Below the pieces are notes generated by a model, which saw only the letters and a program-made list of their open reading frames with translations, made no database searches and was not told the origin of the DNA. A program made the translations under genes and the position numbers. DNA of 64,000 nucleotides from a virus. Below are positions 1 to 44,337 of the stretch, piece after piece. Location: IMG/VR virus record IMGVR_UViG_3300021425_000005; one strand, 5' to 3'. Position 1 is the stretch's first letter; each line of letters opens with the position of its first letter.

Positions 1-1473
1 AGATTTTTTAGCAAAGGTCTTCCAATATGGTATATACCAATTCGATACACCCTGATGTGGTATGAATTCATTATTGAACCTCTGAGACCATTCTAATAGA
101 TCAAAGAAGTTCATACCGATCCTATCGTTTTTCCAAAAGAATGGGCGACTGGCTCTAAAATTGACATCTTTCATTCTATTAATAGCTTCGATGTTTTCAG
201 GTGTCCTCGGTAAGTGAGAAGGAAACCATTCTTCTAGCGACACGTCAGACTCTATATATCCAAGTTCTTCATAATTGTAAGATAGCGGCGGTAATTTCGA
301 CATGCTATCTGATGTATGTCCCTTTGGTTGAATTAGCAATGGATTAATATAAACCGATTGCCCTCTCCAATGATTGAATAACCAATCTTTAGTCTCATTC
401 AGAGACTCCCATGTGTCGTAAGGAAGCCCTGATATGAGTGACATCGTTGTCTTATATATAGGTGCGTTTTTGTTGAAATATTCTCGCATCTCTAATAGAC
501 CTTCGCGTAGTCTATTTTTAGCCATACCTTTATGAACCCATTTAGCGGATTTTTCATTGAAGGATTCAATACCGTAATGGTGAGATGTAAACCCCATGGC
601 AATCATATGTTCCCACTGTTCAGGTTTAGCAACAGCGATATCACCGCGAGCGAAACCTGTTATGAATGGCTTGAATGGCAACTTCTTAGTTACATCTGCA
701 TACTTACGCAACTTCTCAGTATAATCGTTTGTAGTCTCATCTCCAGATATGTAATTGGTGACACCGAAATTATCATAGTTATATCTCAACTCGTCTTCCC
801 AGCATTGAGCAGTTCGAGTATAATCTTTTGTCACACCCAATGCAGGGGCAGCACAAAACTTACACTTAAAAACACAACCCCTAGAAAATTCTGCATTCAA
901 AAATTCATCAGGTTGTATGAAGTCTCGCTCTTGATATCTTGTAGGTAATTCTTCTTTTGGATATGCCTTGTAAAAGTGAAGAGCATCGATGACTTTTAAT
1001 TCCTCACCATGTAAATTGACATGTTTACTAATAATTGGTTTCTTACCAGAGCCATGTAACCAATTCAGTAGTTCAACGATTGCATACTCACCCCAACCTT
1101 GGATATAATAATCTGCCTTAAATTCTTCGACAGTTGTTACGATTGGACCACCTGCGATAATTGTGATGTCAGGGTATTTTTCTTTGACCCACTCGAGAAA
1201 TGGGTTCATGTGTTGTGCCCATAATGCTTGAAACAAAGAACTCACACCCAGAAATTTTGTCCCCTTATTATACCTCATCGTCCAGAGTAGTTTTAATTCC
1301 TCAACGGTAAAGTGTGGGACAAAGTCTATAACCTCTACGTCCCACCCAATAGCACGTAAATGTGTAGCGATCTTATGTCCACCATAAGATCTTTTTGGAT
1401 CTGCTAGGATCGATTCGGGGGTGTAGCCAGTATGTTCATACAACTGACCACTAAAAATCATACCGTGATCCAT
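1..1473 (-). CDS. B12-binding radical SAM enzyme (3' end runs off the window; absent from the ORF track)
   Basis: Manual translation from ATG 1473 gives MDHGMIFSGQ...RSYGGHKIATHLRAIGWDVEVIDF...EFSRGCVFKCKFC (CxxxCxxC at ~850-875), then GDET and YGIESF. The frame appears open to position 1. Paralog of the adjacent gene. Confidence 0.9.
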   Translation of the reverse strand, partial: MDHGMIFSGQLYEHTGYTPESILADPKRSYGGHKIATHLRAIGWDVEVIDFVPHFTVEELKLLWTMRYNKGTKFLGVSSLFQALWAQHMNPFLEWVKEKYPDITIIAGGPIVTTVEEFKADYYIQGWGEYAIVELLNWLHGSGKKPIISKHVNLHGEELKVIDALHFYKAYPKEELPTRYQERDFIQPDEFLNAEFSRGCVFKCKFCAAPALGVTKDYTRTAQCWEDELRYNYDNFGVTNYISGDETTNDYTEKLRKYADVTKKLPFKPFITGFARGDIAVAKPEQWEHMIAMGFTSHHYGIESFNEKSAKWVHKGMAKNRLREGLLEMREYFNKNAPIYKTTMSLISGLPYDTWESLNETKDWLFNHWRGQSVYINPLLIQPKGHTSDSMSKLPPLSYNYEELGYIESDVSLEEWFPSHLPRTPENIEAINRMKDVNFRASRPFFWKNDRIGMNFFDLLEWSQRFNNEFIPHQGVSNWYIPYWKTFAKKS

Positions 1474-3077
1474 GACAGCTTCTTCAGTTTGTATTGTTCA
1501 ATAAAGGCATTTCTTTTCTCGTCATTTTCCTTATAACGAGGGTCGTTCGTCAACTCGTAACCTGTCATATTGATGACATCATCTAAATCATATACACCGA
1601 AAGTCGTCCACCTGTGGAAGTTCCAAGACAAACATTTTTGTGAGTGAACAAATCCATTTCTGGTGATATCTGCATAATATTTAGCTTGTATCTTAGTTGC
1701 TTCCCAAAAATTCATGATGTCTGTTTCCCAAGCCATCGGAACAGCATGTTTCTTTTTATATTCTTCGGGGAATCGACCTACATGTTGGAAGTGAGTTTTG
1801 ACTTGTTCTCTGATCAGTTCAGGGATTTCATTGTAATCAATATTCCAATCATCTACATTACCTTCTCTATATAATCCCGAAGATACTGCTGTTCTATCAA
1901 ACTCGGAACTATTTTCAGCATAGACCGAGTCGTGTGATGTAGAAATAAACAATGGGGTGATTGCTATAGACTCATTAGGCATATTTTTCTGTAGCCAATT
2001 GATACCATCATCGAAAGATTCTTCAGTCTCGTTAGGTAATCCAACGATGAGGCTAGATGTTGACCGATACTTGTTATTATATTTGAGAAATGATTCTCTG
2101 CAATCTACTAATCCCTGCTTCAGACGATCTACATTTAATCCTTTACCGATAGATTTAGCAGCATCTTGATGAAATGACTCAATACCATAGAAGTGACCCC
2201 AAAGACCCATACGTTGCATATTCTCCCAGTCGTTCTGTCTTGTAACAACCAGATCTGCACGAGTGTATCCTGTCATATTCAAGTCATACCCCAGATTATC
2301 AACTACATTCGCAATGCCGAGTAGTTTCTCGGAACTGTCGTTGACGGTCTCATCAGCAATAGTATAACTGACTGTCCCCCACTGCTCATAATTTCGTTTT
2401 AGTTCATCATGTATATTGAGCATGTCGCGCTCAAAATTACCCTTCATACCGATCAAATTGTATTGACAGAATTTACATTTAAACTTACAACCTCGAGCGA
2501 ATTCTAAGTTCAACCATTCTGTTGGTTGTATGAAATCTCTTTCTTGATATCTTACCTGCAAATCTTTACACGGATACGCTGGATGATGTGTGTCCGAGCG
2601 TATGAGTTTTTTCATTCCAAGGTCAGTCTCTACTTCTTGGATGACAGGATTACCATTGTTGTTCGTTAGCTTTTTGAGTAATTCTAGCAAACCATACTCA
2701 CCATAACCTGTAATATAATAATCAAGGTCAATCGGCATCATGGTGCTGAGGTTCTTTGAACCACCCAATAGTGCTATGTCAGGATAGTTATCTCGTAGCC
2801 ATTGTATTTTTTTAGAAAGTTTTGCAGCATTCTTTGGAGTATATGAAAACATAAAACTGACACCGATGAATACAGTATCAGATGTCACCCTAGATTCTAT
2901 GAATTCTTCAAACTCATCGTCTTGCCATTCATTGATGAAGTCACAAACCTCGATATCCCAACCTTCTTCACGCAAAAAAGATGCAATACGATACGCACCT
3001 GCAGCCCTCTTCATTGAAGTCCGTTCAGGCTCTAGTAGAGTCAGCTCCTCATATCCACCTAGTAATATTCCGTGCAT
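1458..3077 (-). CDS. B12-binding radical SAM enzyme
   Basis: N-terminal cobalamin-binding-like domain (GAYRIASFLREEGWDIEVCDF, LLGG, GYGE), EFARGCKFKCKFC, ADET, YGIESF, IVGLPNET. Confidence 0.92.
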   Translation of the reverse strand: MHGILLGGYEELTLLEPERTSMKRAAGAYRIASFLREEGWDIEVCDFINEWQDDEFEEFIESRVTSDTVFIGVSFMFSYTPKNAAKLSKKIQWLRDNYPDIALLGGSKNLSTMMPIDLDYYITGYGEYGLLELLKKLTNNNGNPVIQEVETDLGMKKLIRSDTHHPAYPCKDLQVRYQERDFIQPTEWLNLEFARGCKFKCKFCQYNLIGMKGNFERDMLNIHDELKRNYEQWGTVSYTIADETVNDSSEKLLGIANVVDNLGYDLNMTGYTRADLVVTRQNDWENMQRMGLWGHFYGIESFHQDAAKSIGKGLNVDRLKQGLVDCRESFLKYNNKYRSTSSLIVGLPNETEESFDDGINWLQKNMPNESIAITPLFISTSHDSVYAENSSEFDRTAVSSGLYREGNVDDWNIDYNEIPELIREQVKTHFQHVGRFPEEYKKKHAVPMAWETDIMNFWEATKIQAKYYADITRNGFVHSQKCLSWNFHRWTTFGVYDLDDVINMTGYELTNDPRYKENDEKRNAFIEQYKLKKLSWITV

Positions 3078-3856
3078 TAAATCAAGTCTCTTAGTGTATC
3101 CCTCACTTTTGGATAATATTCATCAAACAGTTGTTTGACTTCTACAGCATTCTCGATATGCTCATATGGGTCATCGGGCAACACCTTAACATTTTTACCT
3201 GCACCATCTTTAGGAATATCATCATAATCCATTTTCATATATTCGAATTGTGGTAATTGACTTTCGTAATCTAGTTCAGTATGGACTGTCTGGAAAATAT
3301 ATCTCCTCATACGACTAATGTCAACAAACAATTTGGTTTCGTTTTTACTGTAACGCCAGTTATCATTTGTCTTTGCGAAGTAATAACTGATCAGCCTCTT
3401 TTCAAAGTCTCTATCTAAGCGAATAAACTTGAAATTGTGTTCTTGTAGGATAGATATTGTTTTTTCTAACCCTAAGAAGATGTATTGTTCACCATAAAAG
3501 AATCGACATGACAGTGGTTGGAAGTTGTCAGCTTGTGATAGTAAACCTATCTTACGATAAACCTCTTCCCAAAAATTTACTGACTGAAACTCACCAGCAC
3601 CATAATCTCTATCTTTAGAAATTATAGTGTCGCCTTCTAAATAGACTTCAGTATCTCTGATTGAAAATGGATGAAACAACTCTCCCAATTTGGCAGAGTC
3701 GCCATAGACTTCGTTGAGGTGTTTGTGTATTTGGTATTCTAAGAGGTGACTACCAGTCCTCGGCATACCGAACACACACCATCGATGGTGTTTCAAATTG
3801 TCAATCATAATATAGTTATTTAGGTCTAGTTTTCGACCTTTGCTCCACCACGCCAT
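3077..3856 (-). CDS. Sulfotransferase-fold protein (start may be an internal Met)
   Basis: N-terminal VFGMPRTGSHLL PAPS-binding-like loop, GELF, and an RLDR...RLISY motif as in Stf0-like sulfotransferases. Confidence 0.65.
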   Translation of the reverse strand: MAWWSKGRKLDLNNYIMIDNLKHHRWCVFGMPRTGSHLLEYQIHKHLNEVYGDSAKLGELFHPFSIRDTEVYLEGDTIISKDRDYGAGEFQSVNFWEEVYRKIGLLSQADNFQPLSCRFFYGEQYIFLGLEKTISILQEHNFKFIRLDRDFEKRLISYYFAKTNDNWRYSKNETKLFVDISRMRRYIFQTVHTELDYESQLPQFEYMKMDYDDIPKDGAGKNVKVLPDDPYEHIENAVEVKQLFDEYYPKVRDTLRDLI

Positions 3857-4440: not shown

Positions 4441-4543
4441 TTTTCTTACCCTTTGAACCGATCTTGTTATTATCTTTCCAGAGCCGTTCCAATGCTTCAG
4501 ACTTGGGAACTTTCTTTAGTTTTGGCTTTGGTATTTTCTTCAT
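4427..4543 (-). CDS. 38-aa Lys-rich microprotein MKKIPKPKLKKVPKSEALERLWKDNNKIGSKGKKNEDV
   Basis: Its ATG overlaps the TGA of the upstream gene (ATGA coupling) and it fills the gap to the next gene. Confidence 0.55.
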   Translation of the reverse strand: MKKIPKPKLKKVPKSEALERLWKDNNKIGSKGKKNEDV

Positions 4544-7101: not shown

Positions 7102-7177
7102 TTTTTCTCTAACAGCTCGTAAATAACACTTGAGACTGCTGGGCTGTGATTACTCAGCAGTTTATATAATCCTACAC

Positions 7178-7185
7178 TATTTATA
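7178..7185 (-). promoter_or_regulatory. T4-type late promoter TATAAATA
   Basis: Exact consensus ~77 nt upstream of the 853-aa gene. Confidence 0.7.
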
Positions 7186-7257
7186 AGATTTGTGCGTTCT
7201 TCGGCTGTTAGAGGGGTTGGTCTTCGTTTTAATCTACTCAAACGATTAAATAATCTT

Positions 7258-7994: not shown

Positions 7995-7996
7995 AA

Positions 7997-10060: not shown

Positions 10061-10070
10061 CTTTATACCT

Positions 10071-10078
10071 TATTTATA
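10071..10078 (-). promoter_or_regulatory. Late promoter TATAAATA
   Basis: Exact consensus 10 nt upstream of ATG 10060. Confidence 0.75.
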
Positions 10079-10329: not shown

Positions 10330-10484
10330 TAGTAATCGAGCCTCCTAGCTTCTACAATTTGACGGCATTGTTCTAACCATTCAAAATACCCCTTATTACC
10401 TTTATAGAATTCCTGCTTCTCAGGAGTCCCAAAAGTGTTTAGCACCCATTGTGCTTGTTCTGGGTCTTTACCGTGATACGACAT
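10329..10484 (-). CDS. 51-aa hypothetical (MSYHGKDPEQAQWVLNTFGTPEK...)
   Basis: Manual translation; GAGG SD; overlaps the end of the TauD-like gene. Confidence 0.65.
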   Translation of the reverse strand: MSYHGKDPEQAQWVLNTFGTPEKQEFYKGNKGYFEWLEQCRQIVEARRLDY

Positions 10485-11352
10485 TACGTTCCTCTATAAA
10501 TTTTACTTTACCAACATTACTGATTGGGAAAGTATATCGATGAAGTAATCTGTTTTCAAACACTTCATCACTTCTAACAGGTCTTCGATGTAAAGTCAAC
10601 AACTGATCAGACAAAACTATGTCGCCGACTTCCCATTCGTGGTGATACATAAACTTTTCTTGAAAGAGATATTCTTTAAGTTCAAAATATAACTCTACAT
10701 CTTTTTCAATAATACGCAAATCATTGTTGTCGTAAAAATATAAACCCTTTGTCCCAGCAATATTTTCTTGTTCAATGAACATCGAATAATCGTGGCGGTT
10801 TTTACGCATAAATTCTAATTGGTCAACATTGTCAATGTCTGCCCAATTTTCCATATTATATGTATACGAGCAACGGACGCCTGAGATCTTTTCTTTTAAT
10901 TGCTCAGGCATTTGTTCATATGCAACAGCTGTGTTAAGCCAAGATGTAACTGTTCCCTCTACGCCGCGAATACCTTGAAGAGCCACACCATCTGCACGGT
11001 CTGGACCATTTAAATTCGCATGCCAATCAAGTTTACCTCTAGGAAATATTCCTGAATAATGACCATTCTTCTTCTCGGCTGTCACACGCTGGACAGGATA
11101 TACATTGCAATCCCATGGATCGATATAGGTTTTCCACTGGTCAGCGACGTATTCCCCATTTTCATTCCACACACATTGACCAAAATTAGAAATGGTGTTA
11201 TTCATGCCGTGAATAAGGCGAGCGAATTTATAAGAATCTGTAGGCTGGTTTTTAATAACAACAACCAATTCTTTTTTCAGAGTTTCTAAAACATTATCGC
11301 AATCAACTCTTGTCAAATTATCAAGGTCAATATCTACAATCTTATGTGTCAT
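10468..11352 (-). CDS. TauD/TfdA-family 2OG-Fe(II) dioxygenase-like (H-x-N variant)
   Basis: LVVVIKNQ, WHAN, T-W-N...AYEQMP, YHHEWEVGDIVLSDQLLTLHRR, RLLHR. Confidence 0.85.
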   Translation of the reverse strand: MTHKIVDIDLDNLTRVDCDNVLETLKKELVVVIKNQPTDSYKFARLIHGMNNTISNFGQCVWNENGEYVADQWKTYIDPWDCNVYPVQRVTAEKKNGHYSGIFPRGKLDWHANLNGPDRADGVALQGIRGVEGTVTSWLNTAVAYEQMPEQLKEKISGVRCSYTYNMENWADIDNVDQLEFMRKNRHDYSMFIEQENIAGTKGLYFYDNNDLRIIEKDVELYFELKEYLFQEKFMYHHEWEVGDIVLSDQLLTLHRRPVRSDEVFENRLLHRYTFPISNVGKVKFIEERNVVSR

Positions 11353-12012: not shown

Positions 12013-12858
<846 letters not shown>

Positions 12859-24678: not shown

Positions 24679-25374
24679 ATGGCTAGATCGACCGACTACT
24701 TTCACCCAGTGAAAAATCTACTTAGTATTGATGAGACACAGCACATAGTAAATACTTGGAATGATAAAAACCTTGTGCAGTTTTGGTGTAACTTCATGGC
24801 AAGAGCGTTTAGGGATGGTATAGATACTGGCGATAGTTCATATTTAAATTACCTGAAAAACTTTGGTATTGATATGAAGGATGATCAACTTATTGAGGCG
24901 TGGAAAGCATATAATGGAGAGACAGAAACTTCCCCGTTTGTTTTTTACAATACAATGAATTCGCCTGAAGTATTCGAAGCGATTGGGAATGATTTAATAG
25001 AAAAAATAATTGAACGATATGGTGCTGATGAAGTTTGTTTTATATATGGGAGAGACGTATCACAACCATATCACATACACAAAGATCCAGATTATGTGAG
25101 GTCTTGTAATATCAACATACCGTTATTCCCCAATTATGATCAATATAGATCGACTTATTTCTACAAGAGCAAAGAAAAGTCATCGAAGGTGTATGAAGTT
25201 GATTATAATAAAATACAAACACCAGTCTTATTGAATAATAAAAAATGGCATAATTGTGGTGGCAGTCCAAACTATAAAGGAAATAGTTTGGCTTTGCAGT
25301 TAGGTTATTATAGAAGATATCCAGAAGTTCGCGCGGAACTTAGTCAGAAAGGATTACTTTCCACCCCTGTCTAA
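24679..25374 (+). CDS. 2OG-Fe(II) oxygenase-like protein (only convincing + strand gene)
   Basis: HIHKD...SCNINIPL...PVLLN..KWH (HxD...H); has its own late promoter. Confidence 0.65.
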   Translation: MARSTDYFHPVKNLLSIDETQHIVNTWNDKNLVQFWCNFMARAFRDGIDTGDSSYLNYLKNFGIDMKDDQLIEAWKAYNGETETSPFVFYNTMNSPEVFEAIGNDLIEKIIERYGADEVCFIYGRDVSQPYHIHKDPDYVRSCNINIPLFPNYDQYRSTYFYKSKEKSSKVYEVDYNKIQTPVLLNNKKWHNCGGSPNYKGNSLALQLGYYRRYPEVRAELSQKGLLSTPV

Positions 25375-25797
25375 TTTTTTCTTGATAATTTCAATCTGAT
25401 CAGGAGTCAAGATACGGAGAGCCGAAGCTGCCTTTGTGTTATTATATCCGTAATACTCTTTGACCAGTTCTAATTGTTCTTCTTTCTCAGCCTTCAACCA
25501 TTTATTGAACCGCTTCTTGGGTCGCACAATACCGCGAAGGAAATCAAACTGTGCCTTCTTATCAATATGTGGGCGACTGTTCATTTCATTAGCAGCGATA
25601 ACTGTATCAGCACCATAGCTGAGTGCTTTGTTGACGATGAATGCATTATATTGTTTTTCTGACCAGTCATCGACAATTAAATTTTCTTTTGTATAGTTGA
25701 TGCTATTAGCGAAGTCAAATGGACTGATCGCTTTCTTCTTAACTTTAAATTGTTCCTCGTCAACCTTTACAACGGGATCGCCCATTCCCTCAAGCAT
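25354..25797 (-). CDS. gp62: Clamp loader small subunit gp62
   Basis: SPFDFANSIN, YNAFIVNKALS, NEMN, KRFNKW, VKEYYGY; start re-set to MLEGMG. Confidence 0.93.
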   Translation of the reverse strand: MLEGMGDPVVKVDEEQFKVKKKAISPFDFANSINYTKENLIVDDWSEKQYNAFIVNKALSYGADTVIAANEMNSRPHIDKKAQFDFLRGIVRPKKRFNKWLKAEKEEQLELVKEYYGYNNTKAASALRILTPDQIEIIKKKLDRGGK

Positions 25798-26593
25798 TAT
25801 TGTCACCATAATACAAAGCAATTCTATGCATTTCTCTTTCCTTGATATTCTCAAATGCCTCACGTTGATGTAATGTTAGCCACTGATCAGAAATGACAAC
25901 ATCACCATCGACCCAATCGTGATGATACATATGATATGGATCTAGTGCATGCTCAACGATAATTTCGTGCAATTCTTCAAATTTATCTTCATGTGTTGGT
26001 GAATGAGATATTTGTAGGAATGGGTAATACAATCCTTTTTGACCCTCAGAGTTTTCGCGGACAACATCAAACGCTGTCTCTGAAACTACATCATTGAAGA
26101 AAGATTTTTCAGAACCACCATTAACTTCAGCGACATGCTTAGTGTGGATCTTCATTGTTTCAAGTTCGGTTTGTATCTCTGCTGGCAGGGATTCATATAC
26201 CTTTACCATATTAATCCAGCTAGTCCTTGACCCCATCGAACCCTTGTTCGCATAAATCCAAACAATCGAATGTCGGTCAGGTTTTGTGACAGAATTAGCA
26301 TGCCACTCAAGCGTCTCTGGTTTGTGAAATAATCCTGGACGACCATCGTGACCAATCGCACCCGTGACACGAGTTACACCATCGGCAATCGATAGACTGC
26401 CCATGCGTTCTCGTTTCCAGTCATTATCCCAATGTGATTCGACTTCACCAATCATCTTACAGAATGTTAATTGTTCTTCTGGTGTAATATGTTGGTTTCT
26501 TATAACAACGATTAAATGTTCAGCAAGTGCCTCTGATACAATATCAGCTGTGTCTTGTGTTGGATTTTTTAGATCAACCCCTAAATTCAACAT
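25790..26593 (-). CDS. TauD/TfdA-family dioxygenase-like (H-x-N variant)
   Basis: LIVVIRNQ, WHAN, TSWIN..VYESLP, YHHDWVDGDVVISDQWLTLHQR, REMHR. Confidence 0.85.
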   Translation of the reverse strand: MLNLGVDLKNPTQDTADIVSEALAEHLIVVIRNQHITPEEQLTFCKMIGEVESHWDNDWKRERMGSLSIADGVTRVTGAIGHDGRPGLFHKPETLEWHANSVTKPDRHSIVWIYANKGSMGSRTSWINMVKVYESLPAEIQTELETMKIHTKHVAEVNGGSEKSFFNDVVSETAFDVVRENSEGQKGLYYPFLQISHSPTHEDKFEELHEIIVEHALDPYHMYHHDWVDGDVVISDQWLTLHQREAFENIKEREMHRIALYYGDNNA

Positions 26594-28856: not shown

Positions 28857-29185
28857 GCAGTATAGCCAATTATTTTAGTTTCCCACTCAATATTATTTTC
28901 TTCACACCAGAGACGGTATTCATCGTTATTAATTTGAAATGAAGTTTTTCCTTCAAGGATTTCTTTATATTTTTTATTGAAGGATTCTTCGTCTTTAAAC
29001 ATAAACCAAGTTGTGATTTCTAAACCATCAACTGAAAAATCAAAACCATAATCTAAGAGAATACCAATCTCTTTTGCTTCATTAAATTCATCAGTTAGAT
29101 CGGGCAATTTACTTGATTCTGAATTTGGATAAAACAAATCTCGGAGAGAAGATCTTTTTAATATGAATTCAACACGATATGCCAT
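28853..29185 (-). CDS. Hypothetical protein (AT-rich insert)
   Basis: ORF coupled to its neighbours. Confidence 0.6.
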   Translation of the reverse strand: MAYRVEFILKRSSLRDLFYPNSESSKLPDLTDEFNEAKEIGILLDYGFDFSVDGLEITTWFMFKDEESFNKKYKEILEGKTSFQINNDEYRLWCEENNIEWETKIIGYTA

Positions 29186-29768
29186 TCAAATATTCCAATA
29201 CTTTATTATCATTTCCATTAATTATATGATATGAAACAAATTGTTTCGTAAATTTATATGTAACAGGATTTTCATAATTAACAAACTCTATTACTTTATC
29301 TTCACGTTTATATCGTTCAGGAGTTTTGTTTAAGTTTGTTATAACATTTCTTCCTGACAAATTATATGTATTAAAGAAGTTTATCCAGCTATCATATTTC
29401 TCAAAAATTACAGAATCATATAATTGATGAAAAAATTTAGTGTAATTTCTCACTCTTGTAAATTTATTAACCGTGTGATCAGCATACGCTCTTGACAACA
29501 CACATGCATTAATTTCTGGTATGTGTATTAAACCAGCACAACAGATTATTTCATCATCTTTCTCATAGATGTAGAATCCATTTTTGTCACCATCATAAAT
29601 TTTCTGTATGTATAATTGATGATACAATGTCTCAGGTCTTGTTTGCCAGTCAACTAATTCGACATTCCTTGCTGCAGGATGTGGATCGTTCTGCGCAGAT
29701 TGGCAGAACTTCATTAACTTATCACTTGTATAAGAACTGTCGACCCTAAAGAGCATCAAATTTTCCAT
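29169..29768 (-). CDS. GNAT-like acyltransferase (tentative)
   Basis: FYIYEKDDEIICCAGL...VLSRAY beta-strand pattern. Confidence 0.5.
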   Translation of the reverse strand: MENLMLFRVDSSYTSDKLMKFCQSAQNDPHPAARNVELVDWQTRPETLYHQLYIQKIYDGDKNGFYIYEKDDEIICCAGLIHIPEINACVLSRAYADHTVNKFTRVRNYTKFFHQLYDSVIFEKYDSWINFFNTYNLSGRNVITNLNKTPERYKREDKVIEFVNYENPVTYKFTKQFVSYHIINGNDNKVLEYLNGISC

Positions 29769-30537
29769 AAAGTTTATCGCAAAAATCTTTTGCCCCCAAA
29801 CGAAGGGCGTTATGAAATTGTCCTAACTCTGTGTTGTCATAAACATAGATCGGCATATTTTCAACTACAACATATTCGAGTTCTTCGCGCTTTCTACAAA
29901 CAGCATTATGTAATGAATCTTCGGCTGCGAGCAACTCTTCATCAAATCTTATCGTAGCACCTTTCTTTGAGAACATAAATGGTCTATTCATTGGAACACC
30001 GCCAACTGTAAAGGCTTTTAAGTAATCAAATAACTTCATAATATCAGCTAGTTCATTGCGAGGAACTGACTTCCATATCTGTCGTAAAAAATGTCTAGAT
30101 TGCAACCATTCAGATGTTGTGATTTCACCTTCTGGGATTAAGACATTAGTTTCACCTAATGCTAAGACGTCAAACTCATGCGTCCCTATAAATTGGTCAA
30201 TTTCTTCTCTGGCATCAGGTGTTAGATAGTCATCACCATCAATAAGAACAAGATAGTCATGTTCAGTTTTTTGAAAATAATCTAACACAGAGTTTTTACC
30301 GCGCCCTGGAGTGCCATTAGATTCACTGATGTGGACAGGAAATTCATACTCGGTTGAAATAGTTTGAGCCAGAGAGGCAAAGTCGTTGTCTGTTGTATTA
30401 ATAACGACAATCCGCTCTTGAGGAGAGGAGTTAGAGTTCACGGATCGCAGACACCGCTTTAACTTCTCTGGCTTATCGCTGGTTAAAACAGCGAATAGGA
30501 TATTATTCTTCGAAACCGATTTCATCAATAAACTCAA
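29746..30537 (-). CDS. Glycosyltransferase (GT-A/GT2-like)
   Basis: LKRCLRSV, SNGTPGRGKN, LIDGDD, AEDS. Confidence 0.8.
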   Translation of the reverse strand: MSLLMKSVSKNNILFAVLTSDKPEKLKRCLRSVNSNSSPQERIVVINTTDNDFASLAQTISTEYEFPVHISESNGTPGRGKNSVLDYFQKTEHDYLVLIDGDDYLTPDAREEIDQFIGTHEFDVLALGETNVLIPEGEITTSEWLQSRHFLRQIWKSVPRNELADIMKLFDYLKAFTVGGVPMNRPFMFSKKGATIRFDEELLAAEDSLHNAVCRKREELEYVVVENMPIYVYDNTELGQFHNALRLGAKDFCDKLYGKFDAL

Positions 30538-37106: not shown

Positions 37107-38167
37107 GCTAAGTTTCTTGCTTCTACATAAAGAGTTTTCATCACAGTCTTCAGCTTCTCTCTATCTAGGTCAGTCTGAATGTTATCAATATAATCATCTA
37201 GTAAAGTTATTGTGTCTTCTAAATTGAGATTATCAGCATCAATTGCGTCATCTTCAAACTCAGAAAAGTCTTCAATAATTTTAAGTTCAATTAAATTGCA
37301 GCTTTCAAGTTTGTCAATAAAATTATCGAACCTTGAGAAATCAGATTTATTTACAACAACAACCTTTACAGATCCGCCCTTAACACGATCAAAATCAATA
37401 GCATCGAGACTTGCTCGAGAAGCATCATCTGAGTCGTTGTAATAAAATTTGTGAAAGATGTTAAAGGGGTTTTGAACAAACTCAAGTTCATCTGTTTCTG
37501 TATCATAGATGTGAAAGCCTCTAGGGTCATCATAATCGCTCCAAGTAATTTCATAAGGATTACCAAGATAAGTAATGTTGCCATTGCTACTACGGTGGTG
37601 AAAATGACCAGAGCAAACAAGGGAAAACTTATCAAATATAGATGGATCCATTCCATGGTCATTCGCATGCCCTTTATACATCTGGAACCCAGCGAGTTCA
37701 TAGTGTCCAAAACATACTGTAGCGTCTGTTTCATTGATTGCCTCCATAGTCTGTTTGTAGTTGTCAGAGCAGATCCATGGTGTAAATAGAATGTTCTTTT
37801 TACCAAAAGACAACTCAGTTACTTCAGGATATATCTGAATATTATCATAATCTTTGAGCAACAATTCTGGAGAGTTTACCTCATTGGTGTTCTTAAAATA
37901 AGTATCATGATTTCCTGGAATCATATGCATATCAATCTGCATCTGTTCAGTTTTATCAAAGAAATACTCACGACATTTTTTATATGTGTTGAAGTTGATA
38001 AACTTACGTCGATCGAAAATATCACCCAAGTGAATGATAGTTTTGATTTGCCGTTTTTCAAGTTCTGGAAAAAATGTTTGAGAATAAAACTTTTCAAAAA
38101 AGTTATCAAATGGGATTGAGTCTGACCTCGCACCGAAGTGCGTATCAGTTATCAGTGCTATTTTCAT
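37103..38167 (-). CDS. gp47: Recombination nuclease subunit gp47
   Basis: TDTHFG, LGDIFD, GNHD, GHFH. Confidence 0.97.
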   Translation of the reverse strand: MKIALITDTHFGARSDSIPFDNFFEKFYSQTFFPELEKRQIKTIIHLGDIFDRRKFINFNTYKKCREYFFDKTEQMQIDMHMIPGNHDTYFKNTNEVNSPELLLKDYDNIQIYPEVTELSFGKKNILFTPWICSDNYKQTMEAINETDATVCFGHYELAGFQMYKGHANDHGMDPSIFDKFSLVCSGHFHHRSSNGNITYLGNPYEITWSDYDDPRGFHIYDTETDELEFVQNPFNIFHKFYYNDSDDASRASLDAIDFDRVKGGSVKVVVVNKSDFSRFDNFIDKLESCNLIELKIIEDFSEFEDDAIDADNLNLEDTITLLDDYIDNIQTDLDREKLKTVMKTLYVEARNLA

Positions 38168-38507
38168 TACGAATATCCGTTGCGGAGATTGATTCAATCT
38201 CCTCTCCTAAATGCTCTTGTTCAATTATATATCCAACATCCCGACCATAAGTTATATGTGTGATGTTTGCTGAGCGCGATAATTCAAAATCTACACCATA
38301 AATATACCCTTCTGCCTCCAAAGAGTCAACAATATTTTTTGAGACAGTTTTCCAGTCGTATGGATTGTTTTCGTCTTTTGGCATGCGCCTCACTGTGATG
38401 AGGACTTGACCAGTTTTTTGAAGGGCTTTTTTAAATAGTTCTGTATGCCCTCGATGCCATGGCTGGTATCTTCCAAGGAGGAGCGTAGTTGGTTTAGTCC
38501 AATCCAT
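38145..38507 (-). CDS. HxGH nucleotidyltransferase (cytidyltransferase/ATP-sulfurylase-like)
   Basis: GRYQPWHRGH, NPY, YGRDVGY, ISATDIR; own AGGA SD. Confidence 0.8.
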   Translation of the reverse strand: MDWTKPTTLLLGRYQPWHRGHTELFKKALQKTGQVLITVRRMPKDENNPYDWKTVSKNIVDSLEAEGYIYGVDFELSRSANITHITYGRDVGYIIEQEHLGEEIESISATDIRNENSTDN

Positions 38508-38842
38508 TTTGTAATCCTAACATCATATTCGTTACGCTTTGGTCTTTCAAAAAGTTTATTTGTATCTTCGAATCTACCTTCTTTGATGGTGTCCATCCAT
38601 ATCACAAAGTGTGGGTCACAGATACTTCTTATTTGTTTAGTTGGAGCGATAAAATCTAAAATACCCCACTGATCGCGCATATACAATGCTTGCTCTATTC
38701 TTCCACCGCGACTAAAATCCCAATTGTCAGTATATTCTCGAACAACATCTGCATTATGGTATGGAACACGAAAATGAAATGCTAGTTCGCTGGCAAGAGT
38801 AGTCTTACCAGATCCTGGAAGTCCCATTATCAAAATTTTCAT
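38390..38842 (-). CDS. Adenylylsulfate (APS) kinase-like P-loop protein
   Basis: MGLPGSGKTT, NADVVR, WDFS..GR, DFIAP, FERP. Confidence 0.75.
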   Translation of the reverse strand: MKILIMGLPGSGKTTLASELAFHFRVPYHNADVVREYTDNWDFSRGGRIEQALYMRDQWGILDFIAPTKQIRSICDPHFVIWMDTIKEGRFEDTNKLFERPKRNEYDVRITKWIGLNQLRSSLEDTSHGIEGIQNYLKKPFKKLVKSSSQ

Positions 38843-39777: not shown

Positions 39778-40343
39778 TATTGTGTTCCTCTGAGAATTTT
39801 AACAAGCGTGTTAGTTTGACTTATAGCATCGTCCAAGGCATTATGCCATTTACCGCCTTGATCGTTCTCAACCTGACGAATATGAGCGTTATTAACACCA
39901 AACAAATGTGTTACTGTCTTGTAACAATAACAATGCCAATACTTCCAAGGAACTGGAAGATTCAATTCATGGCAAGCTGACTCAATAATCCCGAGGTCAA
40001 ATTGTGCACTATTTCCCCACGTAGGTGTTGAAACACCATACCACCTTATAAAATCAGTAATGACTTTATCGAACTGCTCAACATCAACCATAAGAGACTT
40101 CAATGCCGCTGGGTCTTTTTTAGACCACCAATCAAGAGTTCCTTTATCAATATGCCGATTAAATTTCTTTGCTGTTGATGCATCTATATTTTGATAATAA
40201 GTATCGATAACACCGCTCTCAATATTAAATTTTACAGCACCAATTGACAAGATCGCAGCATTACTGCGATTACTGAGGGTCTCAATGTCAATCATCACTT
40301 GATATTTTTTAGGGTCTTCATAATCAAACTTATACATTACCAC
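39777..40343 (-). CDS. DEDDh 3'-5' exonuclease (DexA-like)
   Basis: MIDIETL, SIGAV, WGNSAQFD, HNALDDA. Confidence 0.88.
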   Translation of the reverse strand: MVMYKFDYEDPKKYQVMIDIETLSNRSNAAILSIGAVKFNIESGVIDTYYQNIDASTAKKFNRHIDKGTLDWWSKKDPAALKSLMVDVEQFDKVITDFIRWYGVSTPTWGNSAQFDLGIIESACHELNLPVPWKYWHCYCYKTVTHLFGVNNAHIRQVENDQGGKWHNALDDAISQTNTLVKILRGTQ

Positions 40344-42358
40344 TTACCATTTTGTTTCCAAGTATGTTCAAAGGAGAAATCCTCTGTCATATTGAGTAAC
40401 TGTGCTTCTTGCTCACCATCGAGCATGTCCTGATCAGAGCGGGGGTCATCAGCCTTTGCCAATCTCTTTGCTCGGTCAACGACTCGACCAGTTTGCCTAC
40501 TGAAATCAAAGAACTTCCAAGGATCTTCAACAGATTTATATGAGGCATCAAAGTCTGCTTCCCAATTACCATCGGCGTCAATCTCAAACTTATAAGTCGC
40601 TCTGTATTCACCATTACCAAACGAAATCCACTCACCTGTCCCAAACTCTTCAAAGTCAAGTTCTGGGCTGAAACGGTGCTCGAATTTGAACCCACCTCTA
40701 GTTCTCCAGAAAAATCTAAGAATTGGCCAAACTTCATTCATTAGGCTTTCGGCAAAAGGATTATCAGGAATTTTGATAATGTTCGTATCAAAATTTTCCC
40801 ACTCGATCTCTTTTATACATGATTCATCATGAAAAGTCAAGGAGTAATGTTTACTTTCTAATGCATCTCGTTTACTAACAGGAGTTCCCTTTGCATTCAT
40901 AGCAGGATTATAGACAGGATTTTGAACAATGAGTTTATCAACCATCATATAGATATTTTTAATTCTGGTTAGGACATGTGGTCCAGCAACTCTATAATCT
41001 TCAGTAATCCAATGACCATTATATGTATGTGGTAGGATATTGAACCTAGATAAATCTTGTCCCATGATTGAGTCAGGGCGAGGCATCAATCCATAACCGA
41101 GGCTGATACTATTTAAATTGTTCTCTCTGTTTCTCCACAAAAACTGCATTGTTTGATAGTGGTCATTCGGTTCTTCTGTTGGCCACCCAGAAATCCAGTT
41201 TGTCAACGCTACGATTCCAACTTCCTTGATGTCTCGAAAGTTTTGTTCCATGGCTTCAACTGTAACTTTCTTATCGATACTATCGAGGACTTTTTGACTT
41301 GCTGATTCGCAACCGAAGTTCATGGCAATGCATTTACCTGCAGCCAATTGTCTCAGATATTCTAAATCCATCCTGCCGTCATGACGAGCATATCCCAACC
41401 ACATAACGTCCAATTTATTTTCTTCAATAAGATTTGCAAACTCTTTTAATTCTTTTAGGTTTCCATTTACCAGACTATCTAAGAAGTAGAATACCTGTGA
41501 CCCCCTAGTTTCGTTGAAGTGTTTTACTTCAGAAAATGCATCTGTAAATTCTCTTTGTCTATATTTGTTAAAGTGAGTCTCGGAACAAAAGGTGCACTTA
41601 GCAACACAGCCCCTAGAAAACTCAGAGGATATTGCATTTGGAATAATATATTGATTAAAATCTAGACTGCAATAATCTGGTAAAGGCAAATTACTAATAT
41701 TCAATCTCTGATCAGAAACCTGACTTATAATAACAGGTTTTGGTTCCTCAATCCCCGCTTCGATTTTATTGAGGACACTTAGGATTGCATTTTCACCTTC
41801 ACCAGAAACAATATAATCATAAATTGTTTTCCCTGAATAATCATCTTGAATAGATTGAATGTTAGAACCTCCCACAATAAACTTTGTGTCTGGTAATTGC
41901 GAACGAATCCTATCAACAAACCAATGGGTGACACGTTCACTAAACACATACTCAGTAAATCCTATCACGTCAGGATTGTAATCGATTAAGACTTTAGCTT
42001 GGTCTTCCCAAAAACTTTCAAACCATGGTAATATAACATCATGAAAGTCTGCATCTTGCCAACGCCAACTACCAGTCGTCCATAGGTCGTCATCTATTTC
42101 ATTTTCTAATTGAGAGTAGTTATAAGAGGTTACATTAAAATCAAAAATATCAGTTTCATACCCAGCGGTTTTAGTCACCCCCGCAAGGCGAGCAAGGTTG
42201 TATGGTGGGAATTGAACCGACCACATAGGCATAACGACGAGCGCAAGTTTAGTATTTCTTGTAGCATAATCGATAACTACATCTGATGTTTTTTGTCTCA
42301 CCTTCTTACGATTGGGAGAAATAACATCAAGCATCGCTTGATCGCGTTCAACTGACAT
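40337..42358 (-). CDS. B12-binding radical SAM enzyme
   Basis: MPMWSVQFPPYNLARL, PDVIGF, IVGG, GEGE, EFSRGCVAKCTFC, FLDSLVNG, FGCES; start re-set to the TAATG-coupled ATG. Confidence 0.93.
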   Translation of the reverse strand: MSVERDQAMLDVISPNRKKVRQKTSDVVIDYATRNTKLALVVMPMWSVQFPPYNLARLAGVTKTAGYETDIFDFNVTSYNYSQLENEIDDDLWTTGSWRWQDADFHDVILPWFESFWEDQAKVLIDYNPDVIGFTEYVFSERVTHWFVDRIRSQLPDTKFIVGGSNIQSIQDDYSGKTIYDYIVSGEGENAILSVLNKIEAGIEEPKPVIISQVSDQRLNISNLPLPDYCSLDFNQYIIPNAISSEFSRGCVAKCTFCSETHFNKYRQREFTDAFSEVKHFNETRGSQVFYFLDSLVNGNLKELKEFANLIEENKLDVMWLGYARHDGRMDLEYLRQLAAGKCIAMNFGCESASQKVLDSIDKKVTVEAMEQNFRDIKEVGIVALTNWISGWPTEEPNDHYQTMQFLWRNRENNLNSISLGYGLMPRPDSIMGQDLSRFNILPHTYNGHWITEDYRVAGPHVLTRIKNIYMMVDKLIVQNPVYNPAMNAKGTPVSKRDALESKHYSLTFHDESCIKEIEWENFDTNIIKIPDNPFAESLMNEVWPILRFFWRTRGGFKFEHRFSPELDFEEFGTGEWISFGNGEYRATYKFEIDADGNWEADFDASYKSVEDPWKFFDFSRQTGRVVDRAKRLAKADDPRSDQDMLDGEQEAQLLNMTEDFSFEHTWKQNGKW

Positions 42359-44337
42359 TATTTGCGCCATTGACCAGCACCTTCCCAATCTAATTTAAAA
42401 CTTAGATCTATCTCTTTATTATACCTATCCGCACGACTCTTCACTTCTGATATTTCATCTTCTGTCTGTTGACCCTTTGAGTGTATAGAAATTGCTTCAG
42501 TGATGTGACTTGGATTCAGGTCTAAATCGATGAATGAAAATGGCTCGTCTATTTGCTTGAAATCAAAATTTAATTTCATATCCCAATAACCCTCATCGTC
42601 TATATCAAATTTTATATTATAGGATAACTCGTTCTTACCGAAAGAGTCACCCAAAAACCCCTCATCAATCTTGGGGTCTGCTGTTATTTCTATGTTGAAT
42701 GCACCCTTCATTTTCCATAATATTCTAAGCAACGACCAGACTTCGTTTACCATAGTCTTAGCATACGGATTTAAATCCTCTTTGACCAGATGAAAATCCT
42801 CGAAATCATCAAACTCCTCAAACTCATTATCTAGATTTTTAAAGAATTTAAAGTTGTAGTGGTCTAATGGATTAGCCATAGATGAATTATTTTCAATCAT
42901 CATCCCTTCTGTATTTCTCAATTCCCGTATGAAGATGTTTGCCATCTTAGCACGAACCTTATTTGTATCTCCACCCTGAGAAAAATCATCTAAGATCCAG
43001 TGACCACCATAGGCTAAATTTGAATACTTTTTATAAAATTGTGAAGGGTTCAATCCAACCATGGCAGATGACATAACCCAATAATCTGGTGCAATAGCGA
43101 TTGATTTTAAATTTCTACAAGCTGATCTCCACAGCATCTCATATGTCTTATAGACTTCTGAGATTTGTTCTTCGGGGGATCCAAAAATAATCTGACTTTG
43201 TGCCCAGAGTTTAACCCTAGCAAATGAATCCATGTTGTCGTGAATAGTCTGGACATTCACCTTCTTGTTCATCTTATTCAGTGCACCTTGCGCACCAGTC
43301 TCGGTTCCAAAGTTCATACCCCACAATCCACCATCTTTTAGGATTTGCAGATACTCATCGGTCATCCTTTTGTCATGTCGAGCATAACCAAACCACCAGA
43401 TAGGAAGTTCCCTTTCTTTTACTTCTATGGCAAACTCCTTCAACTTTTTAAGGTCGCCATTGATGAGGCTGTCCGTAAACCAAAACATTTGGACGCCATG
43501 GGTTTCATATAATTCTTGCAATTCATCAACAAGAGTGGTTGATTCTTTTTGACGATATTTCCAGAAATGAGTTTCAGAACAGAAAGAACACTTAGCTACA
43601 CAACCACGTGAAAATTCAGTCAACATACAATTTGGCATATCATAGAGATTCAAATCCAAATCTGTGTAATCTGGTGTTGGAAGTTCATCTAGACTCAACC
43701 TTTGCCTTGATGATTCAAAAATTTTCACTTCATCATTTTTAATACCCATTTCAATTTCATTCAGTATAGGTAGGAATGTTTCCTCACCTTCACCAACTGA
43801 TACATAATCAATATCAAATTTATTTTGAGAATCTGCAGAGTCTGTAAGTGTATTTGGTCCACCGAGTATGATTTTAATATTCGGATTATGCTTCTTCATC
43901 ATATCAGTATATCTGTGAGTTGCGAACCTGTTATAAAAATAACAAGAGACACCAACGATATCTGGATTATAATTTTCTAACATTTCCTTCACAAGTCGAT
44001 CGACTGTGGGATAGAGAAGTTCTTCCATTGAAGATTCGTCATACCAACCACTCAGTAATGAATTGTTGTATTCACCTTTTGGTTTACCCAACGCATCATA
44101 TGCATGTTTAGCAGCAATATTAAAATCAAAAATTTTAGATTGATACCCTGCTCGTTTTGCCATTGCATTCAAGCGAGCAAGATTATATGGTGGGAATGTA
44201 GCCGCCCACACAGGTAATGTCAGTAGCGCAACCTTCGATTTACGCTGAATACTATATTCTTTTTTTACAGGTTGCGAATTGACTTTTTGTGAATGACCCT
44301 CAATCTGTTTGAGGATCTGCATATCACGATTAGACAT
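42358..44337 (-). CDS. B12-binding radical SAM enzyme
   Basis: LPVWAATFPPYNLARL, PDIVGVS, LGGP, GEGE, EFSRGCVAKCSFC, FTDSLING; TGATG-coupled to gp55. Confidence 0.93.
   Translation of the reverse strand: MSNRDMQILKQIEGHSQKVNSQPVKKEYSIQRKSKVALLTLPVWAATFPPYNLARLNAMAKRAGYQSKIFDFNIAAKHAYDALGKPKGEYNNSLLSGWYDESSMEELLYPTVDRLVKEMLENYNPDIVGVSCYFYNRFATHRYTDMMKKHNPNIKIILGGPNTLTDSADSQNKFDIDYVSVGEGEETFLPILNEIEMGIKNDEVKIFESSRQRLSLDELPTPDYTDLDLNLYDMPNCMLTEFSRGCVAKCSFCSETHFWKYRQKESTTLVDELQELYETHGVQMFWFTDSLINGDLKKLKEFAIEVKERELPIWWFGYARHDKRMTDEYLQILKDGGLWGMNFGTETGAQGALNKMNKKVNVQTIHDNMDSFARVKLWAQSQIIFGSPEEQISEVYKTYEMLWRSACRNLKSIAIAPDYWVMSSAMVGLNPSQFYKKYSNLAYGGHWILDDFSQGGDTNKVRAKMANIFIRELRNTEGMMIENNSSMANPLDHYNFKFFKNLDNEFEEFDDFEDFHLVKEDLNPYAKTMVNEVWSLLRILWKMKGAFNIEITADPKIDEGFLGDSFGKNELSYNIKFDIDDEGYWDMKLNFDFKQIDEPFSFIDLDLNPSHITEAISIHSKGQQTEDEISEVKSRADRYNKEIDLSFKLDWEGAGQWRK

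Follow-up and report, generated by a model that had tools for sequence, protein, structure and literature searches.

The window analysed here, the whole 64,000-nucleotide stretch of IMG/VR record IMGVR_UViG_3300021425_000005, comes from an uncultured T4-like phage, kin of the marine cyanophages and pelagiphages. It carries the core of a T4-like myovirus (gp41, UvsX, gp43, RegA, gp62/44/45, gp46/47, a gp55-like gene, UvsW/Y and the genes from gp23 to gp13). The earlier note had listed 14 tailoring enzymes among these genes and every one of them could be located within positions 1-44340 (Table 1), although support is uneven. The better backed, with strong or moderate support, are the four cobalamin-type radical SAM proteins (rSAMs), two TauD-family proteins, a third protein with an oxygenase-like fold, the family-2 glycosyltransferase (GT2), the GNAT fold, the sulfotransferase-like protein and the APS-kinase-like kinase. 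The nucleotidyltransferase (NTase), taken as an ATP sulfurylase, and the short SDR-like protein are indicated weakly, by motifs only, and the desaturase-like protein is borderline. The enzymes are spread among the replication genes; the B12 rSAMs form two tandem pairs (A and B) and no singles. As had been noted, no scaffold-building enzyme is visible within the window. Complete relatives have up to nine radical SAM genes per genome, so that such a wealth of enzymes is nothing exceptional among these phages.

Table 1. Tailoring-type genes and associated features of the window, with the main evidence for each.
Feature	Position	Strand	Evidence or context
A-type cobalamin-type rSAM, copy A2	1..1473	-	Radical_SAM 47.9 bits, B12-binding 29.3 bits, CVFKCKFC at residue 200
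A-type cobalamin-type rSAM, copy A1	1458..3077	-	Radical_SAM 45.1 bits, CKFKCKFC at 197
Sulfotransferase-like protein	3077..3856	-	PRTGS 5'-PSB and RLDR..S 3'-PB motifs; PDB sulfotransferase profile matches
T4-type late-promoter motif TATAAATA	7178..7185	-	Heads the operon ending in the sulfotransferase and rSAM pair A
TauD-family protein 1	10468..11352	-	PF02668 71.8 bits; DWHAN motif
Short SDR-like Rossmann protein, 164 aa	11349..11843	-	TGHTNGVG, NNAY, YEEDK motifs
Membrane di-iron desaturase/hydroxylase-like protein	12079..12858	-	PF00487 29.2 bits (cut-off 29.7)
o104, small conserved phage protein	13300..13614	-	Flanks the clustered toolkit in other phages
Double-stranded beta-helix, 2OG oxygenase-like protein	24679..25374	+	AF2 pLDDT 78; Foldseek
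TauD-family protein 2	25790..26593	-	PF02668 110.8 bits; gp44-gp62 slot; EWHAN motif
GNAT-fold acyltransferase (o199)	29169..29768	-	AF2 pLDDT 79, pTM 0.78; Foldseek
Family-2 glycosyltransferase, soluble	29746..30537	-	PF00535 28.9 bits (cut-off 23.3), DGDD at residues 100-103
HxGH/ISATDIR NTase, second ORF of kinase/transferase unit	38145..38507	-	CTP_transf_like 24.7 bits
APS-kinase-like P-loop kinase	38390..38842	-	PDB APS kinase matches of fused homologue; PF01583-rich clusters
B-type cobalamin-type rSAM, copy B2	40337..42388	-	Radical_SAM 49.9 bits, B12-binding 34.9 bits
B-type cobalamin-type rSAM, copy B1	42358..44340	-	B12-binding 46.6 bits, Radical_SAM 43.6 bits

All four rSAMs match PF04055 (43.6-49.9 bits, Pfam cut-off 29.5) and have a CxxxCxxC motif, at residues 197, 200, 247 and 261, while the cut-off of the B12-binding domain (32.1 bits) is passed by pair B and missed by pair A (22.3 bits in A1). 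They resemble the class B (cobalamin-dependent) radical SAM enzymes, in which an N-terminal B12-binding domain precedes the CxxxCxxC radical SAM core (PMC9204698), but unlike those with a named subfamily (BchE, HpnR, PhpK, RiPP C-methyltransferase and others) they reach no NCBIfam equivalog cut-off. Their best scores range from 50 to 120 bits, where the cut-offs lie at 250-750; the highest is 120 versus 360 (TIGR04072) and all others are further below. Pair B also carries a C-terminal extension of ~250 aa, common to the whole B-type family. A2, interrupted by the window start and 523-524 aa long in near-identical contigs, is 34% identical to A1, and the B1 gene overlaps the gp55-like gene by 4 nt. 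The A-type family is found at more than 100 viral loci, in at least four genome slots and as one copy per genome outside this phage; the B-type family (at least 360 proteins, more than 400 viral loci) occurs mainly within nucleotide-sugar/SPASM-rSAM arrays. The close relatives L230/L231 have a single B-type rSAM in the same slot between gp55 and the exonuclease, and L083/L084 keep pair B and miss the kinase/NTase. As part of the explanation favoured below, we are inclined to regard pair B as a lineage-specific duplicate and an independent resident of its own slot.

The sulfotransferase-like gene, which overlaps rSAM A1 by 1 nt, is borne out as such: a 33-sequence profile (A2) of the family hit NodH (3.7e-4), SULT1B1 (0.014), Stf0 and CurM-ST in the PDB, with sulfotransferases making up six of the seven hits, and the sole invariant residues of the family (R33, G35, R149 and S157) are those of the two PAPS-binding motifs. 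It shares with NodH/Stf0-type enzymes the invariant PRxGS 5'-PSB and RN..S 3'-PB, but differs from them in that no sulfotransferase Pfam scored over its cut-off (Sulfotransfer_3 13.6 bits, Sulfotransfer_1 12.3 bits, E about 0.1). At about 22 loci it stands by itself in the slot between HSP20 and o112. Of the claimed PAPS-supply pair, one half holds. The kinase is APS-kinase-like, as the best four PDB matches of its fused homologue in G012 are all APS kinases (2yvu 6e-4, 2gks 1.5e-3, then 0.26 and 0.42) and the atlas clusters nearest to it have PF01583 in 93-100% of their members; the window kinase itself gave no PF01583 match at E<=0.01. The NTase, however, fails as an ATP sulfurylase (17.9 bits against a cut-off of 24.3, with the HxGH region alone covered, in ~120 aa), and its ISATDIR motif and weak PDB matches point to the NMNAT type. 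The two ORFs correspond to the two halves of phrog_10255 and are one fused protein in G012, G006, G010 and G024 and separate in G004, G007 and G020. Bifunctional PAPS synthases (SAT/APS kinase, Aquifex 2gks) have a similar arrangement of kinase and HxGH transferase as a fused or adjacent unit, and the kinase half aligns with them through the P-loop, D.D.VR, FS.E.R and (I/V)(S/A)P. Unlike them, this unit has a transferase of ~120 aa with the ISxTxIR motif of NMNAT/cytidylyltransferases and goes without a co-occurring sulfotransferase. Sulfotransferase and kinase/NTase share no cluster, and among complete genomes their occurrence is anti-correlated (G004 has only the kinase/NTase and G035 only the sulfotransferase), which speaks against a PAPS supply serving the sulfotransferase.

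Three 2OG-Fe oxygenases had been proposed. Two are TauD-family proteins, both above the PF02668 cut-off of 27 bits, with TfdA as a PDB match (3.8e-10), but both carry H-x-N instead of H-x-D, EWHAN/WHAN aligning to WHSD of TfdA. Asn replaces the Asp in seven of eight phage homologues, the distal His being retained; the 2-His-1-carboxylate triad (H-x-D...H) is thus not found intact in the two window proteins. TauD-family protein 2 is a long-term resident of the gp44-gp62 slot, where it is also found in G003, G012, L368, L388 and L393. The third protein, encoded by the only plus-strand gene, is placed here by predicted fold and by the invariant H134, D136 and H191 (H-x-D...H) of its family; it has no Pfam match, and the top Foldseek matches of its model are nearly all Fe/2OG dioxygenases at a low TM of 0.3-0.4. 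Its family co-occurs with GT2 and GNAT in G014, G023, G012, L368, L388 and L393. The SDR claim finds the TGxxxGxG, NNAY and YxxxK motifs in its favour, but the protein is short against the ~250 aa of a full SDR and Pfam gives just 17 bits (RmlD_sub_bind); homologues of 183-187 aa directly follow the A-type rSAM or a PP-loop gene in L356, L359, L362, L364, L365 and L397. The desaturase-like protein has three His boxes (HRIFSH, HIQHH, HADHH) and hydrophobic segments, but falls just below the PF00487 cut-off, which its relatives pass. The glycosyltransferase stands on PF00535 together with DGDD, and its neighbour, whose gene overlaps it by 23 nt, is a GNAT at the level of the predicted fold: the top Foldseek matches of the model are all GNATs (prob 1.0, E about 1e-6, TM up to 0.72).

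Exact matches to the late-promoter motif TATAAATA, the only form scanned for, number 11 in the window against 3.4 expected, a count reached in 0 of 100 shuffles. One precedes the sulfotransferase and pair A and none lies directly upstream of the GT2/GNAT, kinase/NTase or pair B genes, which suggests that pair A and the sulfotransferase are timed differently from these others.

Co-occurrence was profiled across six relatives with complete or near-complete genomes. There the accessory families are patchy and independent, and no two share a profile apart from the A-type rSAM and the desaturase-like gene, a pairing that comes from phylogenetically non-independent genomes. The whole enzyme set is in none of the complete relatives, and the A-type rSAM, the sulfotransferase and the kinase/transferase each also occur alone, in different slots. 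Such independent, patchy distributions across whole genomes speak against the jointly acting system of the earlier note, by its own terms.

Gene neighbourhoods in other phages give a different picture. Seven of the families (GT2, GNAT, A-type rSAM, sulfotransferase, short SDR, desaturase-like and kinase/transferase) are found together there, in varying subsets, in compact co-oriented clusters. One type (G031, L354-L365, L397) has the order o104, GT2, Coq4-like, GNAT, A-type B12-rSAM and a variable tail of PP-loop, short SDR, 2OG hydroxylase and sulfotransferase. In G031 (4701-10699) it is a block of overlapping ORFs: o104, GT2, Coq4-like, GNAT, A-type rSAM, PP-loop, 2OG-like and sulfotransferase. 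The six-gene order GT2, Coq4-like, GNAT, B12 rSAM, QueC-like, AspH-like is common to G031 and L354-L365; L354, L356-L365 and L397 add a short SDR-like gene, and the block recurs at 11 loci of one lineage. Homologues of o104 (38-48% identical) border GT2-Coq4-GNAT-rSAM clusters in G031, L354, L356-L365, L385-L386 and L395. Compared with these contiguous islands, the parts are dispersed in our phage, the Coq4-like gene is absent and the PP-loop gene lies outside the window. A second type, in the slot between DUF3310 and gp45 (G012, L393), combines GT2, kinase/NTase, KAS-like, desaturase-like and GNAT genes, and G004 has the desaturase-like gene, SPASM rSAMs, kinase and NTase in a single array. 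In G035/L295 a B-type rSAM, DUF6071 and a sulfotransferase-like gene lie inside an array of SPASM rSAM, epimerase, UDP-Glc dehydrogenase and carbamoyltransferase; the sulfotransferase-like gene is the only window family with which the B-type rSAM clusters. TauD-like proteins were never found in the tailoring clusters of these neighbourhoods. After dereplication, the GNAT has at least one window family less than 6 kb away in 18 of 23 independent GNAT lineages (GT2 in 12, the desaturase-like gene in 10, one or both of these in most lineages), the links of A-type rSAM, sulfotransferase, SDR-like and kinase/NTase coming from one or two independent lineages each.

On balance, and by a modest degree of belief, we favour the view that the 14 enzymes make up six or more accessory cassettes, each inherited on its own, in part a modular, recombining tailoring toolkit, and not one obligate system. 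The cassettes would occupy the variable slots that separate the conserved T4-type core genes. Accessory genes gather in such slots, and part of the adjacency could therefore be neutral. Roughly half of the enzymes would belong to the toolkit, recombining among uncultured T4-like and larger phages in modules that may comprise GT2 with GNAT, one or two A-type B12 rSAMs with the sulfotransferase, the short SDR-like with the desaturase-like protein, and the APS-kinase-like/NTase unit; here it is split over four sites (1-3856, 11349-13614, 29169-30537 and 38145-38842). No member is obligatory for another, because the complete genomes G002-G005 have the A-type rSAM and desaturase-like gene without GT2, GNAT or sulfotransferase. 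The TauD-like proteins and the B-type duplicates would be residents of their own slots, apart from the toolkit, the B-type family itself being linked with nucleotide-sugar enzymes in other viruses. Because the toolkit families adjoin in compact clusters in other uncultured phages, about half of the enzymes probably cooperate on a sugar- or lipid-type product. The GT2 would transfer a sugar, the GNAT would N-acylate it, the membrane di-iron enzyme may alter the acyl or lipid part, the B12 rSAM may carry out a methylation-type radical reaction, the sulfotransferase would add sulfate, and the kinase/transferase may provide an activated nucleotide-linked donor. Together they would yield a decorated glycoconjugate, carried by the host envelope or by the virion. 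Joint decoration of one substrate is in this way plausible for the subset clustered elsewhere, but finds no support in the case of pair B or the TauD-like proteins. Whether GT2, GNAT, A-type rSAMs, sulfotransferase, SDR-like, desaturase-like and kinase/transferase jointly make one methylated, N-acylated and sulfated glycolipid or glycan of the envelope or virion is a stricter proposition, which we consider conceivable but rather unlikely.

The patchy, non-matching profiles of the complete relatives, the solitary A-type rSAM, sulfotransferase, TauD-like and kinase/NTase genes between core genes, and the lack of all these enzymes in deposited phage genomes would also fit fully independent auxiliary genes acting on different metabolites, with the clusters elsewhere as neutral accumulation in accessory slots. 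We find this conceivable but doubtful, as no lineage within the clade of the window has lost the GT2-GNAT pair, which is also present in the 12 lineages counted above, the G031-type block has overlapping ORFs and recurs at 11 loci, and the families re-associate in varied orders in unrelated contexts. The full version of the earlier note, in which all 14 enzymes form one dispersed pathway that decorates a common substrate, can point to their presence in one genome, to the seven families clustered elsewhere and to the B-type family in nucleotide-sugar arrays. It is very improbable given that the TauD-like proteins stay outside the clusters, in the gp44-gp62 slot, that pair B is a lineage-specific duplicate with its own slot, that sulfotransferase and kinase/NTase do not co-localise and are anti-correlated as described, and that no relative has the whole set.

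A role in modifying phage DNA or nucleotides, instead of a glycan or lipid, might be suspected from the embedding of most genes in the replication module and from the PP-loop ATPase of the G031-type cluster, by motif QueC-like, whose family serves in the 7-deazaguanine modification of DNA. This too is very improbable: the partners elsewhere are membrane desaturase-like, KAS-like, UDP-Glc dehydrogenase, epimerase/dehydratase and carbamoyltransferase genes, and neither a DNA transferase nor a glycosylase or DpdA-type gene was seen in the clusters examined. We give least credit to the clusters producing, in place of a surface decoration, an antibiotic- or RiPP-like product such as a modified peptide or a small molecule that diffuses, since neither a precursor peptide nor an NRPS/PKS or exporter was seen, the rSAM scores are far under every subfamily cut-off and the partner arrays are dominated by sugar-nucleotide enzymes. 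On its side are the rSAMs' weak matches in NCBIfam to PhpK-type enzymes and RiPP C-methyltransferases, the Coq4-like gene and oxygenases of the cluster, and the naming of similar genes as antibiotic-synthesis genes in a cyanophage paper (PMC12801897).

The favoured arrangement of recombining cassettes is reminiscent of T4-like pelagimyophages and cyanomyophages, with variable regions between conserved T4 core modules (Zaragoza-Solas et al., 2020, PMC7029224). As in the pelagimyophages, rSAM cassettes vary between similar genomes and cobS/cobT and peptide deformylase are present; their patchwork is similar, as it combines rSAM cassettes with LPS-type genes that are scattered by twos and threes (PMC7029224). 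Unlike the hypervariable regions of that work, the enzymes here are in the replication module and not in a tail-fibre island, and that work mentions neither a GT2-GNAT-B12 rSAM-sulfotransferase cluster nor an APS-kinase-like unit, nor does it connect scattered with clustered versions.

Many kilobases of marine T4-like phages go to radical SAM and other tailoring enzymes, and the clustered and scattered layouts taken together provide a neighbourhood map of those that probably act together, with GT2 and GNAT as the core and radical SAM, sulfotransferase, SDR-like, desaturase-like and kinase/transferase as add-ons. The compact operon of the G031 type makes the single-product proposition directly testable, and its seven to eight genes suit heterologous expression. 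If that proposition is true, phages would encode a glycoconjugate pathway of an undescribed kind. A product that is a surface glycoconjugate would have a bearing on phage host range, on superinfection exclusion and on the evasion of defences, in bacteria that abound in the ocean.

The genes of the window lie nearly all on the minus strand, five tRNA genes are present, and Pfam matches outline a T4-type core (gp41 helicase, UvsX, MazG, gp43 polymerase, RegA, gp62/gp44/gp45, gp46/gp47, a gp55-like protein, UvsW, UvsY, and gp23 through the neck proteins). The only DNA matches to deposited phages were short stretches, of cyanomyovirus gp41 and of a Methylophilales phage, and the viral contigs G013, G014 and G022 represent the window's phage at 97-100% protein identity. 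All 14 enzymes of the dispersed tailoring system proposed in the earlier note could be placed, with graded support; the identities of the GNAT, third oxygenase, SDR-like, Coq4-like, QueC-like and KAS-like proteins are at the fold or motif level.

Coordinates of the features discussed, with the place of each in our reading of the window
Feature	Coordinates	Place
Radical SAM A2	1-1473	Toolkit, site 1-3856
Radical SAM A1	1458-3077	Toolkit, site 1-3856
Sulfotransferase-like	3077-3856	Toolkit, site 1-3856
Late operon	4540-9825	
TauD_1	10468-11352	Independent resident
SDR-like	11349-11843	Toolkit, site 11349-13614
tRNA genes (Pro, Trp, Thr, Ser, Arg)	11852-13840	
Desaturase-like	12079-12858	Toolkit, site 11349-13614
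o104	13300-13614	Flanks toolkit genes, site 11349-13614
DUF481 protein	16006-16671	
phrog_3704 protein	22671-23309	
Two TATAAATA motifs	24662-24673	
o231 (third oxygenase)	24679-25374 (+)	
TauD_2	25790-26593	Independent resident
GNAT	29169-29768	Toolkit, site 29169-30537
GT2	29746-30537	Toolkit, site 29169-30537
CobS and CobT-like	31103-34472	
Kinase/NTase unit, two ORFs	38145-38507, 38390-38842	Toolkit, site 38145-38842
Radical SAM B2	40337-42388	Independent resident
Radical SAM B1	42358-44340	Independent resident

Against 50,697 deposited phage genomes, tblastn gave no match for radical SAM A1, TauD_2 or the desaturase-like protein, and only remote matches in unrelated phages for radical SAM B2 and GT2; a cultured representative is absent from this collection. 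As no enzyme has a meaningful relative there, profiling was moved to uncultured contigs. Scanning viral contigs with one protein at a time (TauD_2, GT2, desaturase) yielded nothing beyond near-identical contigs. We retrieved the full sequences of 12 related records, together with two complete genomes selected through gp23 alone, and scored them with the window proteins and family HMMs, a comparison that ignores genome kinship. Record G002 has the A-type radical SAM and the desaturase-like protein without the window's GT2, GNAT, sulfotransferase, TauD or kinase/NTase; G005 has the same set, G003 adds one TauD and G004 the kinase/NTase. None of the window's families is present in G025 and G026, and G035 (361 kb) has the sulfotransferase family without the kinase/NTase. 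The co-occurrence expected of one system was thus not seen: profiles in complete or near-complete genomes are patchy and independent, the very pattern that the earlier note had set against its idea. The slots occupied by the A-type radical SAM, sulfotransferase, pair B, kinase/NTase and TauD_2 agree with this. This patchwork has also been described for pelagimyophages, with radical SAM cassettes as part of it (PMC7029224).

The four predicted cobalamin-type radical SAMs are present, as two tandem pairs, A and B, with 34% identity between the copies of each pair and 22-27% across pairs; none reached an NCBIfam cut-off for subfamily assignment. Outside the window's phage the A-type is single-copy and found in at least four different slots (between gp32 and the baseplate, between DUF3310 and gp45, between RegA and HSP20, and, as in the window, after DUF5824). 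Some relatives hold a single B-type gene, between gp55 and an exonuclease, so pair B is a local duplication. The B-type family has >400 viral loci, mostly in arrays with SPASM radical SAMs, epimerase/dehydratase, UDP-Glc/GDP-Man dehydrogenase and carbamoyltransferase; the array in G035 additionally includes a sulfotransferase-like gene, and similar arrays are present in G003-G005. For the 1,100-1,650-aa protein downstream of B-type arrays, the PDB yielded no relative. This phage group has greatly expanded its radical SAM genes (G002, G003, G004, G005 and G025; three complete genomes have nine Pfam matches apiece), and many of them lie in tight SPASM-type paralogue arrays beside carbamoyltransferase, UDP-Glc dehydrogenase and epimerase (e.g., G003:C1:137227-147702). 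In the window's own population one more cobalamin-type radical SAM, the fifth (515 aa; G013:C1:10505-12049, G022:C1:24382-25926), is 38-40% identical to A2 and lies ca. 21 kb beyond pair A, outside the window start, where it adjoins a fragment resembling UDP-Glc dehydrogenase and the region of a QueC-like PP-loop gene. CobS (AAA_5/CbbQ_C) and its 729-aa CobT-like partner (phrog_459) were considered as a cobalamin supply and rejected, since all relatives keep both, even G025 and G026, where no B12-binding radical SAM is present; the two thus do not track the B12 enzymes.

Two of the three claimed 2OG-Fe oxygenases clearly belong to the TauD family. In both, the iron-binding H-x-D of TauD/TfdA enzymes is replaced by H-x-N, which across the phage proteins reads WHAN or WHVN. 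The Asn is found in seven of eight phage homologues (window, G003, G009, G012, G013, G023), with Asp kept in one G012 paralogue, and the distal His is retained. These phage proteins therefore need not have classical Fe/2OG activity. TauD_2 has long occupied the slot between gp44 and gp62. The third oxygenase could be assigned to a gene, o231, the sole one on the plus strand, which matches no Pfam family. The top matches of its structural model were nearly all Fe/2OG dioxygenases, at TM-scores so low (0.3-0.4) that they speak for the fold class only, and H-x-D...H does not vary across four homologues. The two TATAAATA motifs between RegA and o231 overlap on opposite strands, and the plus-strand copy ends 5 nt upstream of the o231 ATG, a spacing that would imply a leaderless mRNA or a true start further downstream. 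The 212-aa phrog_3704 protein (labelled ferredoxin, 1.8e-109; no Pfam family) is confined to the window's own lineage and L387.

The sulfotransferase candidate was a near-orphan in a word search, and an exhaustive HMMER search retrieved 37 remote relatives, the profile of which matches solved sulfotransferases, with the two PAPS-binding motifs as the only invariant residues. In ca. 22 loci it stands alone between HSP20 and o112. Upstream of the window's copy, the late operon codes for an 853-aa AAA_33/zeta-toxin-like kinase, an M15 peptidase, DUF6267 and a second HxGH nucleotidyltransferase (195 aa), a block kept in G012 and, in part, in G003-G005. The operon closing with the sulfotransferase and pair A is headed by an exact late-promoter motif, and the other loci have no such motif immediately upstream.

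What the earlier note took for a PAPS-supply pair is one unit, its two ORFs corresponding to two halves of one PHROG family. A frameshifted pseudogene was rejected, as the split form is found again in G004, G007 and G020, and a fusion in G012, G006, G010 and G024. NAD salvage, suggested by AAA_28 and NMNAT-like matches, was downgraded once APS-kinase matches appeared. The kinase half is APS-kinase-like, as had been guessed from sequence. The transferase half failed as ATP sulfurylase and is of the small NMNAT/cytidylyltransferase type, which speaks against a supply role for the sulfotransferase. Moreover, the unit never adjoins the sulfotransferase and the two are anti-correlated in complete genomes, so neither co-occurrence nor adjacency backs a dedicated supply. 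We thus consider it rather unlikely that the unit supplies PAPS; activation of another donor, for its GT2, KAS or desaturase neighbours, is at least as likely. Close relatives without the kinase/NTase still keep pair B.

Physical clustering in other phages speaks, against the patchy distributions, for a link between the families. In G031, located by a profile scan for the sulfotransferase, genes with overlapping starts and stops follow in the order o104-like, GT2, Coq4-like, GNAT, A-type B12 radical SAM, PP-loop (QueC-like), 2OG-like and sulfotransferase (the Coq4-like, QueC-like and 2OG-like labels being motif readings). The closest distinct relative, G012, has GT2, fused kinase/NTase, KAS-like (N-terminal motif only), desaturase-like and GNAT genes between DUF3310 and gp45, and G004 has a single array of desaturase-like, SPASM radical SAM, kinase and NTase genes. 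The GNAT, by its predicted fold, is the 199-aa ORF adjoining GT2 in the window, and a metagenome scan with its alignment gave 52 loci, reducing to 23 independent lineages apart from the window's own. Eighteen of these lineages have one or more of the window's families within 6 kb of the GNAT. Gene by gene, that distance holds GT2 in 12, desaturase-like in 10, Coq4-like in nine, SPASM radical SAM in six, 2OG-like in four, A-type radical SAM and sulfotransferase in two each, and SDR-like and kinase/NTase in one each. These counts are lower bounds, many contigs being just 1-5 kb, and the links of the last four families depend on one or two lineages each. The gene o104, which flanks clusters elsewhere, also flanks the window's desaturase/SDR locus, with which the tRNA genes are interspersed. 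Three His boxes and hydrophobic segments mark the desaturase-like protein, whose Pfam score falls just short of the cut-off; the SDR-like protein (164 aa; homologues of 183-187 aa in other phages) is recognized by motifs only. DUF481 homologues, 28-31% identical to the window's protein, lie directly upstream of GT2, Coq4-like and GNAT genes in two other lineages (L366, L367, L372, L376-L378).

Neither a fixed pathway of 14 enzymes nor a set of wholly unrelated genes accounts for the data. GT2 and GNAT form a stable pair that gathers variable partners from the pool to which the window's other enzymes belong, and we therefore read the window as holding a modular tailoring toolkit in scattered form, divided among four sites, with the TauD-like proteins and the B-type duplicates as independent residents beside it. 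From the clustered partner enzymes, the membrane character of the desaturase-like protein and the DUF481 gene beside GT2, Coq4-like and GNAT in two lineages, we infer a sugar- or lipid-type candidate substrate, and the predicted toolkit may act on the host envelope or on the virion.
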